From the IMG/VR virus record IMGVR_UViG_2713896908_000007: a stretch of DNA of 64,000 nt; one strand, 5' to 3'. This stretch comes from a virus (Duplodnaviria; Heunggongvirae; Uroviricota; Caudoviricetes). Position 1 is the stretch's first letter. Each line of letters opens with the position of its first letter. Under the pieces are notes generated by a model. The model saw only the letters and a program-made list of their open reading frames with translations. It was not told the origin of the DNA and did not search any database. The translations under genes were made by a program, and so were the position numbers. Shown here in pieces: positions 30,807 through 40,252 of this stretch.

Positions 30807-33800
30807 ATGAACAAGCTATCTATGGGGGTGTTTCGCTGTTCAAGCGTCAGCGAAATATTGAAATATATTAGGGCAATAACATCTCACCGAGCGCCGATTA
30901 AATACGGCGTGGAAAAGGTGGAAGGCAAAAGCTATGACCGACTGCGCCGGGAGGCGAATCAGAAGGCGATAGATTTGCTTAATTCGCTGGTGGACGGCGC
31001 GACACTGACAGATGAACAGCGCCAGATCCTGGCTGGGTACACCGGTGAAGGCGGCATTGGCGGGTCCGTCTCCGAATATTACACACCAAAGCCGATCGCT
31101 GAAGGTGTCTGGGAGATCATGAAGCTCTACGGCGCGGACGTAGGTAACACTCTGGAACCATCGGCGGGAACCGGCGTTTTTAATGAGACAAAACCGGTTG
31201 GTACGGTGATGACCGCGACTGAGATCAGCAGTGTTTCCGGTCGTATAAACCAGTTGTTACACCCGGAAGACAGCGTACAGATTTCCCCGTTCGAACAGCT
31301 GGCTATAAGCACGCCTAACGATTCATTCGACCATGTTGTGGGTAACGTTCCGTTCGGCGGTCGTGATAACACACGCAACATCGATAAGCCTTACGCAGAA
31401 GAAACGGACATGGGTTCTTACTTCATGCTCCGCATGCTGGACAAGATAAAGCCAGGCGGATTCATGTGCGTGATTGTGCCGCCGTCCATTGTTTCAGGTT
31501 CAAACATGAAGCGGTTACGCCTGCGCCTATCACGGAAAGCTGAATTTCTTGGTGCCCACCGCTTGCCTACCGGTACTTTTGACGCAAACGGGACCAGTAC
31601 AGTCGTTGATGTGGTGCTGATGCGCAAACATCCGGCAGAGATGGCTGAGAAAATCCCCCAGGTGGATGAAAGCACTCTTGAATCGGCAAATGTGCTTTGG
31701 CCAACGTTTATTTCAGGCAAGTGGTTTGAAAAGGACGGACGCCGGTTTGTTCATGGTGCCCAGGAAAAGGGCTTCCAGGGGCGTATTGAGGTTCGTGCCG
31801 ACGGGCAGATTGATAACCAGGCTCTTAAAACGAAGCTGATTCATCGTTTCGAAAGTCGTATCGACTGGTCTTTGCTCGATATGGCTGAACCGTCACCGAC
31901 CGCAGATGTTGTTGATGAAGGGGAAATGCGCCTGATTAATGGCGTATGGCAAAAATATGCTGGTGGTCGCTGGATTGAAGCTGATGCTGGTAAGGAGCTT
32001 AAGATTGATGCTGCCAGTTATGGCGCGGATAGCTGGGAGGCTCTTCAGCGTAACCTGACTACAACAGAAGGCCGTCTCGGTATGACATTTACCCAGATGG
32101 CAAATGTCCGCGATAAGTACACCACATCAATCAGCGACGATATGGTGCAGCTGGTGGACTGGATTAACAGCCAGCCTGAAAAATACCGTGAACGCTTGTA
32201 TCGCGGGGCGATGATTGGCCGGATGTTAATTGAATATCAGGACATGAAGGCCGCCGGGCATAGTGCTGAACAAATCGAACAGCAGCGCCTTTCTCTGGTA
32301 TCCCGTTTGCAGGCAGAGATTGATCGCTTTGGTAATCCTGGTCGCGGTCCTATAGCGAAATTGTCGGGGAGCGGTGCGCGCGCCTGGTTTGCTTTCCGTG
32401 GTGCGATTAAGCTGGATGGCACTATTTCTGACGAGCTGACAGGAAAGCTGGTTACGCATGATTCCAGCGCCAGTTATGACTCCACCAGCTATCAGGACAC
32501 CCTGCGTTATCTCTATAGCGATCTTACCCGCGATCCAATCCAGCTCGATGATTTCCGCCTTGCGTTTACCGGCGAACTGCCAGCCAGTGATGAAGAGTTG
32601 CTTAATTTATTGGCCAGCACCCCTGGTATTGCGGTTTCACCGTATGGCGGGATTGTTCCGTTCGCCCGCGCCACCAGCGGCGACATTAACGAGATAGTGG
32701 CTCCAAAACAGGAATTTCTTGCCACACTCCCCGACGGTCCAGTAAAGAACAACGTCCTTAATCAGCTGGCAGCGATCGAAGAGAAGCGCATCAAGACGCC
32801 AGCAGAGAATATCCGGTTTAAGCTCAATAGCCGTTGGTTTGACCGTTCCGTCATTCTGGAATTTTTGCAGGAAAACGGCTATCCGGATCTGCGCTATGTG
32901 CAGTCAGTGCAGCTGGAAGGCGACGAAATGGTTTCTGACACCTATCACGGTGGTGATGGTCTGTTCGTCGGGCACCGATACGGTGTCGTCCAGCGCAAGG
33001 ATAAAGAAACAGGCGAGATCCGCTACGAGTGGGACCGTAAATCAGGTGAAAACGCGACCGGGTTCCCGGCACAGCTGGAAAAGTATCTCAATGGTGCGCG
33101 TATCGGTGGCAAAGATAGCGCGACGGCGAACGGCTACCGCGAGCAGATGGCACTGCTTGAGGACCAGTTCAATAAGTGGATCAAGACGCACGATCGCTAC
33201 GATGAACTGGTTGCCAAATACAACGATGTGTTCAATAGCAATATCCCGTATGAACACTCTGGCGATCCGCTTGGGTTGAAGGGATTAAGCGGTAAGCGCC
33301 AGCCATTTGATTACCAGAATAGCGAGGTGCGCCGACTGTCCGAAGATGGGCGCGGCATCTTGGGCTTCGGCACCGGGCTGGGTAAAACCACGACCGCGCT
33401 GGCGCTTGAGGCGTTCAACTATGAGAACGGTCGCTCCACCCGTACTGCTTATGTAGTGCCTAAATCAGTGCTGGAAAACTGGTATTACGAAGCAAAAGAG
33501 TTCCTGAGTGAAGAGGCATTCAGTAACTACCTGTTCGTTGGTCTTGATGTGCTGATGGATGGCGATCAGATTCGCCAGGTGCCGGTGCTCGACGAGAACG
33601 GTAAACCTGTCCTTGGCGCTGATGGCGCTCCCGTTATGCGCGATGCTCTTAAACTGGCAGATGAAGCCACTATCACAGCAAGGATGAACGCGATTCCGCA
33701 CTCAAATTACCGTGCAGTCGTGTTTACCAAAGAACAATACGCCCGCATTCCGCTACGTGATGACACCGTAGATGAGCATGCACAAGACATGCTTTATGAC

Positions 33801-36581
33801 TTCGTTGCTGCCGGACGTGTGGCCAGCGCAATGGATTCCGACTCCCACCGCAAAGAGGCGGCGCGTCGCCGGGTATTGTCGGAGTATTCAGATACCGGTA
33901 CCGAAAAAGCAGAGAAGTATCCGTACTTTGAGGATATGGGCTTCGACAGCGTGATTGCTGACGAAGGCCACAACTACCGCAATAGCTATAAAAATGGTCG
34001 CGAAGCGTCACAGCTGGCCTATCTGCCCACCAGCGCGGTGGCGCAATCGGCGCGAGATATGGCAATCAAAAACGCGTACCTGATGAAAAAGAATGGCGGG
34101 CGCGGGCCGGTTCTCCTGAGTGCAACGCCAGTCGTTAACACCCCGATCGATGCATACAACATGCTTTCTCATGTTCTGCCGAAGGAATACTGGCAGAAGA
34201 TGGGGATCTACGGTCCTGATGACTTCGTTAAATTCTTCGGCAAGACCAGGCTGGAAACGGTACAGAAAATCAGCGGTGAAGTTGAAGAAAAAATGGCGCT
34301 GGTGGGCTTTGAAAACCTTGATGCGCTGCGCGGCATATTCCATCGCTGGACAACGCTTAAAACAGCGGAAGACGTTAAGGATACCGTGGAGATCCCGGAG
34401 CTGGACGAGCACCAGCAGGATGCACCACTTACTGAAGAACAACTGGCGGCGTATGAAGAATTGCGTCAGCAGGCGGAAGCGGCGGCCAAAGCCAACAATG
34501 GCGTAACGACCTCGGTCAATGAAGACGGCGTGATTGAGCACGAGAAAGCCCGTCCGATCTTCTCAATAATCAGGGATATGGACCGCGTATGTACTGACAT
34601 GGACCTGTACTATCGCCGGATCACCTATCGTTTCCTGCCGGAGTACGCCGATGCGGTGCAGCAGCTGGCGGACAGTTTGCCTAAACAAGCCACCAGCGAA
34701 GACGACGACAGTGATGATTCAATCACGCAGCAATCGCAATACTCCCTGATAGATAAGGGCGAGTTTATTCAGTTGCAGGTTCCGGAAGCGTTCGAGCAGG
34801 AAGTGAATAAGCGCCTGGCCAGGTTTGGCATTGACGAACAGACCGTAACTCACCCCGTTACGCCCAAATACGCGAAGCTGATTGCCACGCTGAAGGAGTT
34901 TTTCCCGGAAGGTAAGCAAATCATCTTCACCGATGAAAAAACGCAGCACCAGAAGCTCAAGCGCATTATCTGCAATGCTCTTAACCTTGAACCTTCAAAG
35001 GTGGGGATACTGAATGCTCAGACGGTTGCCGAGGCAGGTAAAACCGGTAAGAAACTGAAAGCGGTTAAACCGCCGAAAGAGTTACCGGATGAACCAACAG
35101 ATGCACAGATAGCGAAATACAACGAGCAAATGGCTCTGTATGACGCCTATATCGCGCAGCAAAATGAAATGTCGCTGGGCGGGCTGGAAAAGATTGCTGC
35201 CGACTTCCAGGAGGGCCGGACTCCGATCATCATCTGCAACAAAAAGGCAGAGGTGGGTATCAACCTGCATCGAGGAACGACTGACATCCATCATCTGACG
35301 TTGCCATGGACACCAGCCAGTATCGCACAGCGTAACGGTCGCGGTGCCCGAGTTGGCTCCAACCGTGCAAGCGTTCGCGTTCACTACTACTGCGGCAAGG
35401 GTTCTTTCGATGAATACCGACTGAAGACGCTGAAGCGTAAAGCAGGCTGGATCTCCGATATCCTCCGTTCAGATAAGTCAGAAATGGAGAACGCCGACGC
35501 CAACGATATGATCGAAATGCAGATGTATACCGCTAAGGATGATGGCGAACGTCTGGCAATGATGCAGGTTCAAATGGATAAGGCGAAAGCCGCGCAACGC
35601 GCTCGCCAGAAAGAACAGGCTACTATCGACCTTCAGAACTACATCAAGGCGCAGCACGCAGCTGGTGAGGATGTGGAGGTGCTTACCGCTGAATTAGAGC
35701 GAAGCAAAGCGGAACTTGAAAAGACCACCGCCGACGTCGCCAAATTCAAACAGGCGGTAATGGCCAAAGCAGCTGATAACGCAGACTGGAAAGCCCGCTG
35801 GGGTAGCGTCCATCACACAGACCGTACGTTGTTAGCACAGTATCGCGCGTCGTTGAAAAGCGCCATTCAGCGCAAGGCTAATATCTCTCAAGCCATCTCC
35901 CGCTATGAGAAATTATTGAACCGTACTCAGAAGGCCGCGACGGATATCAAACGCCTGCGCCCGCTGGTGGAGGATGCAATAAATAAAGGCATTATGGATG
36001 TTGATCCTGACTTGGTTAACCATGCGAGTGAGTTCCTTGTTATCGGCGATCGCTCATGGCGTGTAGGCCAATACTACGATTGTGCCGGTGATATCGTTCG
36101 CATTAAGTCGCTGGACTTCGACAGCCAGCGCGCAGACGTGGAGATTATCTTTACCTTCAAAGGTACCAAATCGGGTAACTGGGATGTGAAGACGCTGGAT
36201 AAACAGGTTGATGTAACTCCCGATGAAGATGCTGTTATGCAGAAAATCAGTGGTGGCGTCTCCATCGCCGGGATTAACGACATCATTTCCTGTGACGATT
36301 TCTACCGTTTCCAGCAGCGCGGCATGATCAAAATCACTGACTCATACGGCGTTCAGACTACAGAGTCAGGCTATAGCATTGATTTTGTTGGTACCTATAC
36401 GGACCCACTGAAGCATGCGGTTTACCCGGATCGCCGTGACGGCGCGCTGAAGTCGTCAATTGCAAAATGGGTGCTTGGTATGATGTCGGAAGGGAATAAC
36501 CGCCAGATCCGTTCGGCAGAAACATTCCTGGTTGAACTGTTTGGCTCCAATTATGGCGATGGGAGATACGCTATCCCCTGA
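30807..36581 (+). CDS. darB: antirestriction methyltransferase-helicase (P1 DarB-like)
   Basis: 1924-aa ORF; N6-adenine methyltransferase motifs (EPSAGTGVF, GNVPFGG); SF2 helicase motifs (GTGLGKTT, VIADEGH, QRNGRGAR). Confidence 0.85.
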   Translation: MNKLSMGVFRCSSVSEILKYIRAITSHRAPIKYGVEKVEGKSYDRLRREANQKAIDLLNSLVDGATLTDEQRQILAGYTGEGGIGGSVSEYYTPKPIAEGVWEIMKLYGADVGNTLEPSAGTGVFNETKPVGTVMTATEISSVSGRINQLLHPEDSVQISPFEQLAISTPNDSFDHVVGNVPFGGRDNTRNIDKPYAEETDMGSYFMLRMLDKIKPGGFMCVIVPPSIVSGSNMKRLRLRLSRKAEFLGAHRLPTGTFDANGTSTVVDVVLMRKHPAEMAEKIPQVDESTLESANVLWPTFISGKWFEKDGRRFVHGAQEKGFQGRIEVRADGQIDNQALKTKLIHRFESRIDWSLLDMAEPSPTADVVDEGEMRLINGVWQKYAGGRWIEADAGKELKIDAASYGADSWEALQRNLTTTEGRLGMTFTQMANVRDKYTTSISDDMVQLVDWINSQPEKYRERLYRGAMIGRMLIEYQDMKAAGHSAEQIEQQRLSLVSRLQAEIDRFGNPGRGPIAKLSGSGARAWFAFRGAIKLDGTISDELTGKLVTHDSSASYDSTSYQDTLRYLYSDLTRDPIQLDDFRLAFTGELPASDEELLNLLASTPGIAVSPYGGIVPFARATSGDINEIVAPKQEFLATLPDGPVKNNVLNQLAAIEEKRIKTPAENIRFKLNSRWFDRSVILEFLQENGYPDLRYVQSVQLEGDEMVSDTYHGGDGLFVGHRYGVVQRKDKETGEIRYEWDRKSGENATGFPAQLEKYLNGARIGGKDSATANGYREQMALLEDQFNKWIKTHDRYDELVAKYNDVFNSNIPYEHSGDPLGLKGLSGKRQPFDYQNSEVRRLSEDGRGILGFGTGLGKTTTALALEAFNYENGRSTRTAYVVPKSVLENWYYEAKEFLSEEAFSNYLFVGLDVLMDGDQIRQVPVLDENGKPVLGADGAPVMRDALKLADEATITARMNAIPHSNYRAVVFTKEQYARIPLRDDTVDEHAQDMLYDFVAAGRVASAMDSDSHRKEAARRRVLSEYSDTGTEKAEKYPYFEDMGFDSVIADEGHNYRNSYKNGREASQLAYLPTSAVAQSARDMAIKNAYLMKKNGGRGPVLLSATPVVNTPIDAYNMLSHVLPKEYWQKMGIYGPDDFVKFFGKTRLETVQKISGEVEEKMALVGFENLDALRGIFHRWTTLKTAEDVKDTVEIPELDEHQQDAPLTEEQLAAYEELRQQAEAAAKANNGVTTSVNEDGVIEHEKARPIFSIIRDMDRVCTDMDLYYRRITYRFLPEYADAVQQLADSLPKQATSEDDDSDDSITQQSQYSLIDKGEFIQLQVPEAFEQEVNKRLARFGIDEQTVTHPVTPKYAKLIATLKEFFPEGKQIIFTDEKTQHQKLKRIICNALNLEPSKVGILNAQTVAEAGKTGKKLKAVKPPKELPDEPTDAQIAKYNEQMALYDAYIAQQNEMSLGGLEKIAADFQEGRTPIIICNKKAEVGINLHRGTTDIHHLTLPWTPASIAQRNGRGARVGSNRASVRVHYYCGKGSFDEYRLKTLKRKAGWISDILRSDKSEMENADANDMIEMQMYTAKDDGERLAMMQVQMDKAKAAQRARQKEQATIDLQNYIKAQHAAGEDVEVLTAELERSKAELEKTTADVAKFKQAVMAKAADNADWKARWGSVHHTDRTLLAQYRASLKSAIQRKANISQAISRYEKLLNRTQKAATDIKRLRPLVEDAINKGIMDVDPDLVNHASEFLVIGDRSWRVGQYYDCAGDIVRIKSLDFDSQRADVEIIFTFKGTKSGNWDVKTLDKQVDVTPDEDAVMQKISGGVSIAGINDIISCDDFYRFQQRGMIKITDSYGVQTTESGYSIDFVGTYTDPLKHAVYPDRRDGALKSSIAKWVLGMMSEGNNRQIRSAETFLVELFGSNYGDGRYAIP

Positions 36582-37560
36582 AGCAATTCAGGAGAAAATA
36601 GCGGATGCGATCGCCAGAATGCCGGAAAAAACAAACCAGGGGGCTACTCGTAACGGGGATTCTGAACTTGAAGTCACCAATGCCATTTTCGGTACCAATG
36701 AGTTCCGGGCGTCAGATTATGAGATCACCACAGCACAGTTTGGCACCATTGGCATTTACAGCAATAAAGACGAGATCAAGCAGGCAATGGACGCAGCAAG
36801 TGCGCGCATTGCAGCAGAACGGAAAGCCAATCTGAATCATGCAGTCGCCGCGCTGACTCAATCGTGGGTAACAGCAATCAGGGAGGCCGCCACCACAGGA
36901 AAAATCACACCGGCAATTGCGGATGTCGTAAACGACGGCTCTAAATTTATGGATGCCTATCAAATGGATGCGGTGCAGTTGCCATCAGCCTATGGCCAAC
37001 TCAGCTATCGCATGACCTACAACCTGGTATCAATGTTTTCCGACCTTGCCATCCTTGGGCTGGTGGACCTTAACGAGGTTACGCCGGAATTGCTCAGCAT
37101 GCGCAAGAACCATGTGGAGATATTGCACAGAATTAACACGGTACTTTCCGGGCGCACCGATGAAGAGAAACAGGCAGACGCTGATCGGATAAACCTAGCC
37201 CTTGGCAACATCACGGAGGAAGAAATTGCCGCCAGAAACGAGAAACAAGAAGAGTTATCATCAATACAGGGTGATGCCACCAGCATAGCTCAGTCTCTTG
37301 GTCTGAATTATCGCGTATCCACCGCCGACCTGAAGATGATGTACGCACCAAAATTCGCCGCTGGCGAGGTATTTGGGCTTCAGGAAGCCTCAGGCATGAA
37401 AGGCGTTCTTTTCCGTGCGAAAGACGCAATCAAGGCGAAATTCGGCGCTCGCTGGCTGCCAGCGAAGGCGAAGAACAGCGATTTCCCGGGTAACTGGTGG
37501 ATTATCGAGACAAAACACAACGTGGCGGACGTTCTGGCCGTCATCCAACAATACGCATAA
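36553..37560 (+). CDS. downstream ORF overlapping DarB-like 3-prime end (separate gene or frameshifted DarB C-terminal segment)
   Basis: Track ORF 36532..37560 (342 aa, TTG); first ATG at 36553; +1 frame relative to DarB-like ORF with 29-50 nt overlap. Confidence 0.45.
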   Translation: MAMGDTLSPEAIQEKIADAIARMPEKTNQGATRNGDSELEVTNAIFGTNEFRASDYEITTAQFGTIGIYSNKDEIKQAMDAASARIAAERKANLNHAVAALTQSWVTAIREAATTGKITPAIADVVNDGSKFMDAYQMDAVQLPSAYGQLSYRMTYNLVSMFSDLAILGLVDLNEVTPELLSMRKNHVEILHRINTVLSGRTDEEKQADADRINLALGNITEEEIAARNEKQEELSSIQGDATSIAQSLGLNYRVSTADLKMMYAPKFAAGEVFGLQEASGMKGVLFRAKDAIKAKFGARWLPAKAKNSDFPGNWWIIETKHNVADVLAVIQQYA

Positions 37561-37581: not shown

Positions 37582-38034
37582 GTGTCGCATAATATGGCCA
37601 CACTATCTGATACAATAAAACCGAATAAAACATATCTTGAGGCGGTACTCCGTACAGCGTTGTTAGGAAAGACAGAAGACGAATACGTTGATTTCTTCCT
37701 GTCAGGGCTACGCGGGCGATTACTGAAAAATCCCCGCCTGTACCGCAGCTATGGTCCATACTGGCCGGAAATTAAAAAATTATTACTGGAGCGCGGTTAT
37801 GGTAATTTCGGTCGTCTCGTTGACCGTGACGTTCGCAAAATTTACCGTTATGACCGCCCGGCGCTAACACTCATAGCCGCGACGCTCTACAGCCAGGAGC
37901 GTTTTGATAATGGTCAGATATACTCAGCCTGGCATTTACTGCCAGTGCCTGAAGAAGTTGACGACCAGGACTATGAGTTTGAGTCTTACGATTTGGAAGT
38001 TGAAGCCTTGGCACAGGCTGGAGAGAAAACTTGA
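37582..38034 (+). CDS. hypothetical protein
   Basis: 150-aa ORF, co-directional, 21 nt after previous stop. Confidence 0.5.
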   Translation: MSHNMATLSDTIKPNKTYLEAVLRTALLGKTEDEYVDFFLSGLRGRLLKNPRLYRSYGPYWPEIKKLLLERGYGNFGRLVDRDVRKIYRYDRPALTLIAATLYSQERFDNGQIYSAWHLLPVPEEVDDQDYEFESYDLEVEALAQAGEKT

Positions 38035-38279
38035 AAAAGCGATACTACACAGTAAAGCATGGGACGCTACGAGCATTACAAGAGTTTGCTGACAAGCATA
38101 ACGTTGAGGTGCGCAGGGAAGGGGGAAGTAAAGCTCTGCGCATGTACCGTCCTGACGGAAAATGGCGGACGGTCGTCGATTTCAAAACTAACAGCGTTCC
38201 CCAGGGCGTCCGCGACCGGGCATTCGAAGAATGGGAGCAGATCATCATAGATAATGCATTGCTTCTGAATGCTGATTAA
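38031..38279 (+). CDS. lxc: small regulatory protein (P1 Lxc/Bof-like by size and position)
   Basis: 82-aa ORF, ATGA-coupled; P1 Lxc is remembered as 82 aa at this position. Confidence 0.5.
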   Translation: MKKRYYTVKHGTLRALQEFADKHNVEVRREGGSKALRMYRPDGKWRTVVDFKTNSVPQGVRDRAFEEWEQIIIDNALLLNAD

Positions 38280-38290
38280 TGGTTTTGTTT

Positions 38291-38325
38291 CCCGGTATCG
38301 TATTATACCGGGAAATATCTTTTTA
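38291..38325 (+). terminator. stem-loop, possible terminator
   Basis: cccggtat/ataccggg stem; T-run begins 7 nt after the stem. Confidence 0.4.
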
Positions 38326-38327
38326 TA

Positions 38328-38735
38328 TTAACCCGCGGCTGCAATTAGTGCTGACCCAACCGCCAGTGTGGTGACAAGGCCTATAATGACCACTGTCGCT
38401 GTTACCCCTCCTGCAACAGCAGCTCCAGTCTTTGTTTTGGATAACTCTTTCTTTTCTAGAGAAATGATTTCACCCATAGGAATAGACTGGTTGTTAATAC
38501 CATTGATATATTGTGGGGTAACTTTCGATACTGTCATTTCACCTTCGCTACCTGATTTTAACTTGTATTTAATTAGGTCACCAGCATATATCGGCGGCTC
38601 CGTTAAATAATAGGTACTTCTTTCAAGATTTTTCTGCTGTATGTTAACTCCCTGATAAGACTGACATCCACATAACACAAGCGATAAAATTAGCGTTGTC
38701 AGTAATTTTCTTTTGTTTTTTATCATTGCCAGCAC
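38328..38735 (-). CDS. AT-rich lipoprotein with C-terminal Gly/Ala-rich membrane segment
   Basis: 135-aa ORF; signal peptide with lipobox-like LVLCGC; C-terminal AVAGGVTATVVIIGLVTTLAVGSALIAAAG; AT-rich with AT-rich upstream region. Confidence 0.6.
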   Translation of the reverse strand: MLAMIKNKRKLLTTLILSLVLCGCQSYQGVNIQQKNLERSTYYLTEPPIYAGDLIKYKLKSGSEGEMTVSKVTPQYINGINNQSIPMGEIISLEKKELSKTKTGAAVAGGVTATVVIIGLVTTLAVGSALIAAAG

Positions 38736-38860
38736 TCCTTCTCCTTTTCTTTGTATAGCTAAAACACATTATTTATTCTTGTCAAATAGTTTTGAGTTTG
38801 AGAGTGAGGTTTGCGTGACGACGCTCTAAAAGTTGCAGATAGCGGTAAAGATAATTTTAT

Positions 38861-39502
38861 TTACAATATGTTACCTTTTCCGGTAAGTATGCCTTGCGGT
38901 ACTTTACTTTCCCCCATTAGTTGAGTGGCATGAATGATATTAATAAATGACATTAGTTGTGATGAACTCTTATTAACATTTATCTCTCCTGCCATTGCCC
39001 TAATGTAGTCGGCGCTTGCAACGTTGTTATATTCCGTTGCGAAGCAGCATAACAACGTCAGAACGTGCTCTGTCGTTATTTCGCTCCAGTTGATGTTGAA
39101 AAATTCATCGCCTTTTTTGTCATGTTCGGAATCGAAGATGCTTTGGTGGAGGATGTATTTGCCGGATTCCTTGCGCGGTAACTTGATCGCTTTCTGGCGT
39201 TCCAATTCCTTGTAAATCTGCATTGCTTCAATCAGTACCGGCCTGCCGTTCATGAAGGGATCGCGCAACCTTACACGCTGGCCAACTCGACCAGTAATAA
39301 AGCTGTTTTCCTCTTCCACCAGCACGATAAAACCCTTTTCCTCTTTTTCTCGCAATTCGCGCAGCAGCTGGAGTTCCATATCGCGGCGGCGTTCAGGGTA
39401 GCTGGTCCGCTCAGCCATTATCAGCTCGTTATTGATCCATGCAGCAGTCATTGACGCCGGTTTGCCGACGTTCATCGAAACAACGCATATTTTCTTATCC
39501 AT
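38861..39502 (-). CDS. mat: particle maturation protein (P1 Mat-like by synteny)
   Basis: Track ORF extends to 39649 but a late-promoter motif lies at 39633-39651; ATG at 39502 (MDKKIC…) with GGGGG RBS preferred. Confidence 0.5.
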   Translation of the reverse strand: MDKKICVVSMNVGKPASMTAAWINNELIMAERTSYPERRRDMELQLLRELREKEEKGFIVLVEEENSFITGRVGQRVRLRDPFMNGRPVLIEAMQIYKELERQKAIKLPRKESGKYILHQSIFDSEHDKKGDEFFNINWSEITTEHVLTLLCCFATEYNNVASADYIRAMAGEINVNKSSSQLMSFINIIHATQLMGESKVPQGILTGKGNIL

Positions 39503-39632
39503 AGCGCCCCCTACAAAAAAGAAAAGCCACCAGCGGCGGCTTAGCAATACAACTGAAGGTAGCGCCCGGTACTCAGACTGTGCCGTCCATGGAATATTTG
39601 AAAAGGGATCCATCCGTACCGGGCGTGTGATG

Positions 39633-39651
39633 ATTCTGACTGAAGTCACTT
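39633..39651 (-). promoter_or_regulatory. candidate late promoter (AAGTGACTT-N4-CAGAAT) for mat
   Basis: Perfect AAGTGACTT palindrome 40 nt downstream of ref stop. Confidence 0.45.
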
Positions 39652-39691
39652 GTCAGTTGTCAATCATTTATTATTAAAAATAATATATTTA

Positions 39692-40252
39692 TTAGTGCAT
39701 GACGTTTGCCATCTCGTAAGCGTCAGCCAGCAACTCCATCTCTGACTTGTTCAGCAAGGTGAATTCTTTCTTGCCTCCAACCACACCATCGGCATGAACA
39801 GGGACCAGCCAGGGGTATTTTGCTCTTACTTCAGCCGGTGCTGCATGCTGGTGGTGCCATCTACAAAGAGGCAATTGCTTTTTATGACAACCCGGCGCGG
39901 TACGACCGGCGATATGGTGCAGAGACACCTCATTAGATATTACTCCATGCATATAGCAGGCAATGCAGGGGAGAGCGCCAAGAGCATTGGCGATGCGCCG
40001 TTCCTCCGCCGTTGGTGTTCTCCCCTTCAAGCCACGAGATTTTATTTTTACCGCGCTTTTCCGCGTTTTGCTGGCTGGTGGGCGTTCTTTCTGTTTAGCG
40101 ATACGGCGGTCGATAGTATCCCGCATTTTCTGATATTGAGATTCTCGCCAGACCGGATCAGCCAACTTCTCCCGTTGCCGAGCGATCGCTCGTTCTCTGG
40201 CTGCCTTCTGCCACTTACGGTGCTGTTCAATTTTTTGTTCGATTGTTTTCAT
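39692..40252 (-). CDS. ref: HNH-family recombination enhancement nuclease Ref
   Basis: 186-aa ORF; MKTIEQKIEQHRKWQKAARERA… with HNH-type core …SLHHIAGR…CRWHHQ…; position cre-cra-ref-mat as in P1. Confidence 0.85.
   Translation of the reverse strand: MKTIEQKIEQHRKWQKAARERAIARQREKLADPVWRESQYQKMRDTIDRRIAKQKERPPASKTRKSAVKIKSRGLKGRTPTAEERRIANALGALPCIACYMHGVISNEVSLHHIAGRTAPGCHKKQLPLCRWHHQHAAPAEVRAKYPWLVPVHADGVVGGKKEFTLLNKSEMELLADAYEMANVMH

Follow-up and report, generated by a model that had tools for sequence, protein, structure and literature searches.

The window analysed here, the 64,000-nucleotide IMG/VR record IMGVR_UViG_2713896908_000007 (Duplodnaviria; Heunggongvirae; Uroviricota; Caudoviricetes), covers that end of an Escherichia albertii P1-like phage-plasmid which carries cre-c8-ref-mat / lxc-ulx-darB, reversed relative to the P1 map. 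The gene under study lies between lxc and mat, where P1 itself carries its type III restriction-modification (R-M) genes in the order mat - res - mod(::IS5) - lxc. As anticipated in a preliminary description of positions 38280-38860, a single AT-rich open reading frame (ORF) for a putative lipoprotein was found between the two genes, and its location corresponds to that of the P1 res-mod locus. The ORF extends over 38328-38735 on the minus strand and comprises 135 codons when read from a GTG. However, the RefSeq start for the identical gene is the ATG at 38726 (WP_059221999.1; 38328-38726, 132 amino acids plus stop), which is preceded by a Shine-Dalgarno run (AAGGAGAAGGAG, 38746-38735) and agrees with the N-termini of the homologues; the previously assigned length of 135 amino acids was therefore revised to 132. 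Upstream of the gene, an AT-rich leader region of 134 bp (38727-38860, minus strand) separates it from mat, and the guanine-plus-cytosine (GC) content over 38350-38950 was 0.34-0.41, compared with about 0.48-0.53 in the flanks. The 581 bases of 38280-38860 were 100% identical to the Escherichia albertii plasmids p2RM9976 (IncY) and NZ_CP117651.1. As the ends of the window had no match in the remainder of p2RM9976, the sequence may originate from a sister plasmid.

The borders of the exchanged segment were determined by blastn against P1, RCS47, SJ46 and MH422554. Sequence similarity ends exactly with the lxc stop codon (38279/38280), and it is regained within mat, at 38985-38991. The conserved left flank is formed by lxc itself (38031-38279, plus strand), which encodes the C1 modulator (PHROG 2160, 7.8e-57; Lxc annotations in related phages). 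On the right, the mat ORF as called (38861-39502, minus strand) is split into a conserved part at 38985-39502 (213-amino-acid form; PHROG 1837, 8e-107, and annotations) and a divergent 3' end of the last ~40 codons at 38861-38984, which represents the right-hand part of the exchangeable segment. In an alignment of Mat proteins, the residues up to ~172 were invariant, whereas the last ~40 were hypervariable and co-varied with the adjacent cargo. The variable segment thus reaches from the lxc stop (38280) to 38984 within the mat 3' end, so that the left edge of the interval delimited earlier was placed correctly while its right edge at 38860 fell short. A hairpin at 38286-38317, identified by a terminator scan, has a 13-bp stem followed by a T-run on the plus strand and is the lxc terminator, which the lipoprotein gene shares in a tail-to-tail arrangement; it moves together with the cassette, as an identical hairpin is located 3' of an lxc remnant in E. 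albertii plasmid pEA15_2. With respect to mat, the ORF can be extended upstream (39503-39649) to 250 amino acids, the form annotated in P1 and p2RM9976 (P1 start at 39613), or to 262 amino acids from a GTG, and other records annotate the 213-amino-acid form starting with MDKKICV.

The lipoprotein gene was intact in all 24 carrier plasmids, with at least 97.7% amino-acid identity. Between alleles, the ratio of non-synonymous to synonymous divergence (pN/pS) was 0.02-0.10, with pS values of 0.08-0.17 and a non-synonymous divergence of 0.003-0.010. Although the synonymous sites of these alleles differ by 8-17%, the upstream 134 bp contained no more than three differences, a near-invariance that indicates a constrained leader or regulatory sequence. 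This is thus a real, conserved gene that is subject to purifying selection. Its annotation as merely 'hypothetical protein' and the lack of any family-model match would also suit a decaying remnant or a chance ORF without function; however, the homologues, the low pN/pS and the intact copies in every carrier speak against a chance ORF, and together with the conserved leader, a confidently predicted fold and a broad family with conserved motifs they render this explanation extremely improbable. We consider it very probable that the locus encodes a functional envelope lipoprotein carried as cargo.

The gene was absent from P1, P7, RCS47, SJ46 and others, with sharp breakpoints in each case. It displays two features of a moron, a foreign base composition and presence or absence between otherwise collinear phage genomes, and the low GC content suggests that it is of foreign origin. 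A probe consisting of lxc/res matched 559 plasmids from Escherichia, Salmonella, Klebsiella, Shigella and Cronobacter, 24 of which carried the lipoprotein gene, all from E. albertii; at least three E. albertii P1-like plasmids lacked it. The cassette had no match in 5,426 complete E. coli genomes. In E. albertii carriers typed IncHI1B (L022-L025), mat is followed by icd and an antirepressor gene (immI-type genes) instead of ref, and in pEA15_2 neither darB nor ulx is present between prt and lxc, and a TnpB gene lies between the pro and prt genes. These differing arrangements show that the cassette is kept across differently organized backbones.

The N-terminus of the protein displays the charged n-region (K3, K5, R6, K7), the hydrophobic h-region (L8-L18) and the lipobox (L18-C19-G20-C21; general pattern [LVI][ASTVI][GAS]C) of a lipoprotein signal peptide. 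G20 and C21 were at least 90% conserved in 41 homologues, most of which have a canonical LSGC, MTGC or LAGC; the cysteine at position -2 in the window's allele is unusual. At the C-terminus, residues ~97-132 are rich in glycine and alanine, and the best 19-mer (VVIIGLVTTLAVGSALIAA) has sufficient hydrophobicity to form a membrane helix. Both the lipobox-like signal peptide and the Gly/Ala-rich C-terminal membrane segment of the preliminary description were hence recovered. A conserved S-K-T-K-T motif precedes the C-terminal helix, and near-invariant positions among the homologues are G20/C21, Y40, P44, Y47, G49, D50, Y54 and G107. An AlphaFold model based on the 41-sequence alignment predicted residues ~21-94 with a predicted local distance difference test score above 90, forming a small beta-barrel of six to seven strands that spans residues ~23-94 (about 72 residues), and placed a helix of low confidence at 97-131. 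The core is thus modelled as an Sm/SH3-like small beta-barrel, a fold class that can be assigned with confidence. According to the model, the barrel begins two residues past the lipid-bearing cysteine and the helix three residues past the last strand. These short connections suggest that both anchors reside in one membrane with the barrel lying flat on the periplasmic face. Lipidation, topology and oligomerization are predictions.

No named family could be assigned to the protein. Scans of the protein, its 41 close and 20 distant homologues against Pfam, NCBIfam, PHROG and PADLOC returned signal-peptide or sub-threshold matches only, Pfam yielded no match to the protein at E <=1, glycine-zipper families included, and the family accordingly lacks a Pfam, NCBIfam or PHROG model and appears to be unnamed. 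Foldseek searches of the PDB and BFVD (viral models) with the AlphaFold model gave no match at E <=0.001, a profile search against PDB sequences likewise gave none, and a literature search by accession and topic found no paper on the gene. A word-indexed search identified five clusters of relatives, a profile search 43 clusters, all from Enterobacterales and about 135 amino acids in length, and an exhaustive hidden Markov model search 392 distant representatives (E <1e-3). The top-scoring representatives inspected share a common layout consisting of a lipobox, a domain of ~70 residues, an E-[KR]-[KR]-[DE]-x-S-x-[GT]-K-T motif and a terminal hydrophobic tail.

The genomic contexts of the relatives are diverse. 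Within IMG/VR, only the same elements and one 38%-identical relative were found; the latter is encoded on a lambdoid-type viral contig, on the opposite strand and as a separate unit upstream of Q, holin, endolysin and Rz/Rz1, a position that is moron-like. Other relatives with 38-55% identity reside in pathogenicity-type loci. A further relative occurs on Serratia conjugative plasmids near replication and toxin-antitoxin genes, and relatives in Salmonella islands lie near pipD together with an ABC transporter and AraC regulators. The Salmonella relatives in islands resembling Salmonella pathogenicity island 5 (SPI-5), adjoining sigE/sopB or close to pipD (L008-L010, 8001-8408; also L004-L007), are accompanied by a Slam-type transporter gene or by an ABC transporter that also adjoins a copy on an E. 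albertii IncF plasmid. The closest relative outside P1-like elements (55% identical, on an E. coli draft contig) is positioned 3' of a gene for a 1376-amino-acid IcsA/VirG-type autotransporter and a 96-amino-acid ORF; the autotransporter has ESPR, VID, AC_1 and Autotransporter domains, and the genes are co-oriented and flanked by insertion sequences (L026, 1236-6223). No partner gene was conserved across the eight genomic contexts checked; the ABC-transporter neighbour recurs in two Salmonella/E. albertii islands and not elsewhere.

The literature treats the region corresponding to res-mod as a hot spot of low GC content in P1-like elements, under the name variable region 1 (PMC9603915; PMC6906374). 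Comparison of lxc-mat synteny across P1-like elements, a check suggested with the preliminary description, showed that the interval is a variable slot with breakpoints at 38279/38280 and 38985-38991 whose cargo differs by element. In RCS47 the slot is empty, with 39 bp from lxc to mat. That of SJ46, the phage from which the CapRel^SJ46 defence system derives (PMC9712102), contains a gene for a 373-amino-acid RelA/SpoT protein (PADLOC PDC-S33 at 7e-87; L014, 1118-2239). The slot of E. coli pE2865-1 carries a gene for a SIR2_2 protein with ThsA-like and PDC-S25 matches beside a type III R-M system (L032, 3010-4314), that of MH422554 an unannotated DUF2971 ORF (L015, 1133-2173), and that of E. 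albertii pEA18_2 genes for an AraC-type helix-turn-helix protein and an EAL protein (L031, 3007-4666). CapRel has been reported as a defence of P1-like elements (PMC9712102), and a preprint counts both type III R-M and CapRel as defences of these elements, the elements themselves being notably prevalent in E. albertii (bioRxiv 10.1101/2025.09.12.675607). Like the type III R-M system EcoPI of P1, CapRel^SJ46 and the SIR2 gene of pE2865-1, the lipoprotein gene lies between lxc (or a 3' remnant of it) and the mat 3' end, has a low GC content and is a single gene or module swapped between backbones that are otherwise 96-99% identical. It differs from them in that its product is a membrane lipoprotein, whereas the others are cytoplasmic proteins of nuclease, toxSAS or NADase type, in that it has no PADLOC match and in that it is confined to E. 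albertii plasmids. We interpret the gene as horizontally acquired cargo in a single-gene slot just downstream of mat, inside the res-mod hot spot. The enrichment of the slot for defence genes provides circumstantial support for a role in defence or exclusion.

The preliminary description had likened the protein to Llp of T5 and Cor of phi80, receptor-masking exclusion lipoproteins. Llp and Cor (phi80/N15/HK022) are soluble-domain outer-membrane lipoproteins that bind FhuA. They resemble the window's protein in being small, phage-borne and predicted to act in the envelope by way of a lipobox signal peptide. However, searches of PHROG, 50,697 phage records, PDB and BFVD detected no similarity to them in sequence or fold, and the protein combines an Sm/SH3-like barrel with a hydrophobic C-terminal helix that Llp and Cor do not have. 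The YgdI/YgdR lipoproteins (SH3/Sm-like) share the lipobox and a small beta-barrel, and the glycine-zipper outer-membrane lipoproteins of the SlyB/Pcp type share the Gly/Ala-rich hydrophobic segment. Family models did not place the protein in either group: matches to the NCBIfam model lipo_YgdI_YgdR do not extend beyond the signal peptide and score far below the cut-off, and no glycine-zipper model of Pfam matched. The domain order is reversed compared to SlyB, the barrel coming first and the hydrophobic segment last. A structure of Llp has been reported (PMC9586334), and PDB searches with the window's lipoprotein still returned no match. Neither sequence nor fold thus supports the analogy to Llp and Cor.

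It had further been proposed that the lipoprotein gene replaced the R-M defence of P1 by an exclusion function, i.e., that it acts as a functional substitute for a lost type III R-M system in an either/or exchange at one locus. This would be in line with the fact that P1 has res-mod between lxc and mat while the window and most carriers have none there. However, P1-type type III mod-res genes directly adjoin the same lipoprotein gene in 4 of the 24 carriers (pEA15_2, NZ_CP117602.1, CP045689.1 and NZ_CP117591.1, all from E. albertii), and in a fifth carrier plasmid res is located about 1 kb from it. The order in pEA15_2 is lxc - mod - res - 101-bp lxc 3'-end remnant - hairpin - lipoprotein gene - mat, and the 5-kb mod-res module is flanked by direct repeats of 101 bp, which correspond to the lxc 3' end and are 91% identical (L025, NZ_CP117656.1, 9667-9767 and 14817-14917). 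The same lxc remnant follows res in E. coli pE2865-1. Recombination between the repeats would yield precisely the junction found in the window. The side-by-side arrangement and the repeat-bracketed module indicate that R-M is gained and lost independently of the lipoprotein gene, and in other plasmids the slot combines R-M with SIR2 or with AraC and EAL genes. Judged from these sequence comparisons, R-M and the lipoprotein gene appear to be separate cassettes, the window's element simply lacking R-M, and substitution for R-M is very improbable. P1 itself does not carry the lipoprotein gene; the juxtaposition with res-mod, which the preliminary description had named, for P1, as an argument against its own proposal, was instead encountered in the E. 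albertii P1-like plasmids.

A role in host lysis was suggested by the likeness to the unimolecular spanin (u-spanin) gp11 of phage T1, a protein of 133 amino acids with an N-terminal lipobox, a beta-rich periplasmic part and a C-terminal hydrophobic helix. The window's protein matches gp11 in size and, as expected for a u-spanin, combines a lipoprotein signal with a C-terminal transmembrane domain. Its gene is oriented like mat and directly downstream of it, and the terminator scan revealed no terminator in between. Upstream of mat, the operator Omat and the promoters Pmat and LPmat (~39620-39690) are conserved in a block identical to P1. The missing terminator and the conserved promoters make read-through from mat during lytic growth plausible, and thus production of a u-spanin-like or lysis-modulating protein by late transcription. 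In addition, two distant family members (P0161 and P0080) gave weak matches to the NCBIfam model NF037951 (spanin2_2, 'bacteriophage spanin2 family protein') that were almost full-length but fell below threshold (27.9 and 20.8 bits; cut-off 100). On the other hand, hhalign aligned only the signal peptide with gp11 (probability 23%), the modelled barrel is compact and without linkers at either end so that it could not bridge the two membranes, and the C-terminus has no counterpart of the basic cytoplasmic tail of gp11. Nor is the gene located in a lysis cassette as the sole spanin gene: it is positioned between lxc and mat, the P1 spanin genes are ppfA and mlp (PMC9025707), and both are kept at 98% in p2RM9976, which carries the identical cassette, outside the region covered by the window. 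The lambdoid contig already has Rz/Rz1, with the relative lying outside the lysis cassette, and the majority of the family members are not in phages. Taken together, a lysis-associated function is improbable.

Among the explanations considered, exclusion of competing phages or DNA at the membrane was ranked first on the basis of the locus context, although only tentatively. In this model the protein would be exported by Sec and lipidated at Cys21, and its compact Sm/SH3-like barrel of about 72 residues would be exposed to the periplasm. The small-residue-rich, 'glycine-zipper'-like hydrophobic helix at the C-terminus would serve as a second anchor, both anchors being inserted into the same membrane with the barrel flat against its periplasmic face. 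Contact with an envelope partner could be made through a conserved aromatic/proline patch (YY..PP[LI]Y.GD..Y), and the C-terminal helix could bring about self-association or pairing with a membrane protein of the host. As a result, competing phages or other incoming DNA would be excluded at the periplasm or inner membrane and the lysogen protected, in a mode closer to that of inner-membrane exclusion proteins than to receptor masking by Llp or Cor. We regard it as possible, but by no means established, that exclusion of phages or mobile genetic elements is the role of the lipoprotein; the explanation as a whole, a moron in a hot spot encoding a doubly anchored lipoprotein that protects the lysogen at the membrane level, is the best available and likewise falls short of even odds. 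A wider proposal, by which the protein would represent the first phage-borne member of a new class of proteins for exclusion or defence at the membrane, anchored by a lipid and a glycine-zipper helix and blocking entry of phage or plasmid DNA at the inner membrane with its barrel, and recruited from the unnamed proteobacterial family (392 representatives) whose chromosomal and island-borne members may have the same role, is unlikely.

Several observations weigh against exclusion. No homology or experiment ties the family to any exclusion or defence protein: for the lipoprotein, the PADLOC-DB defence models gave 0 families at E <=1, PHROGs matched the signal peptide only, and tblastn against the 50,697 phage records found no match, with none outside these plasmids. 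Not all cargo of the slot is defensive, as exemplified by the AraC and EAL genes. The topology is ambiguous: under the enterobacterial rule, glutamine at position +2 would direct the protein to the outer membrane by Lol export, whereas retention in the inner membrane is predicted from the C-terminal helix, which is flanked by lysines on its periplasmic side. With respect to expression, the upstream region is AT-rich, as described earlier, and contains a perfect -35 element (TTGACA, 38785-38780) but no good -10; a sigma-70 scan of the upstream 134 bp on the gene's strand yielded no acceptable promoter, the -10 being poor. The gene follows mat in the same orientation with no terminator in between, and mat is C1-repressed and late-transcribed in P1. 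The hairpin near the 3' end of the lipoprotein gene carries its T-run on the plus strand. Expression in the lysogen would hence be the main weakness of any exclusion model. Finally, close relatives are found beside virulence-type genes and not defence genes: on the E. albertii IncF plasmid next to virK, lpxM (msbB2-like), a glycosyltransferase and a deacetylase gene, in an SPI-5-like locus adjoining sigE/sopB, and downstream of the IcsA/VirG-type autotransporter gene in E. coli. Distant relatives occur in ordinary, unrelated chromosomal contexts, and a general role in the envelope fits these at least as well.

The same contexts lead to the explanation ranked second, a host-benefit envelope factor without anti-phage role. 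Such a lysogenic-conversion or virulence-associated lipoprotein might change the robustness or permeability of the envelope, the resistance to serum or bile or the interaction with the host and help E. albertii in its (avian or gut) niche, and we consider this about as open a possibility as exclusion, also with less than even probability. It would account for the relatives (38-55% identical) in pathogenicity-type loci, namely the E. albertii IncF plasmid, the SPI-5-like islands with pipD of Salmonella and the IcsA/VirG locus of E. coli, for the non-mobile contexts of the 392 distant representatives across Proteobacteria, for the absence of the family from phage family libraries and for the strict association with one host species. 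However, with no conserved partner gene or characterized homologue this explanation is equally based on guilt by association, the P1-like slot is enriched for defence cargo, and the host restriction could reflect mere descent within E. albertii plasmid lineages. For the exclusion or defence role put forward in the preliminary description, circumstantial support thus remains in the CapRel-type and SIR2_2 genes of the slot, while the relatives reside mostly in non-phage virulence-type islands and plasmids. The gene is best described as ordinary hot-spot cargo and as a reasonable but unproven candidate for membrane-level exclusion.

The neighbouring genes of the window follow the P1-like arrangement. 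On the plus strand, ulx (37582-38034) precedes lxc; on the minus strand, ref (39692-40252) and cre (40861-41892) lie beyond the mat promoters. Upstream of ulx, a darB-like gene (30807-37560) consists of two overlapping ORFs of 1924 (30807-36581) and 342 amino acids (36532-37560), compared to a single DarB of 2255 amino acids in RCS47 and P1 (6768 nt versus 6754 nt in the window). The PLSDB table, which omits pseudogenes, lists no coding sequence at this region. The split probably represents a frameshifted pseudogene or a sequencing error.

With lxc repeats on both sides of the mod-res module, there is a concrete route by which P1-like elements can acquire or lose R-M. Should the lipoprotein exclude phages or mobile DNA, a P1 hot spot that has so far been known for cytoplasmic defences (type III R-M, CapRel, SIR2) would gain a protein acting at the membrane, and a widespread, unnamed lipoprotein family would receive its first function; if the lipoprotein is a general envelope factor, it would be routine cargo. 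The gene is near-universal in E. albertii P1-like plasmids and absent from those of E. coli and Salmonella, and it thereby marks host-specific adaptation among these phage-plasmids.

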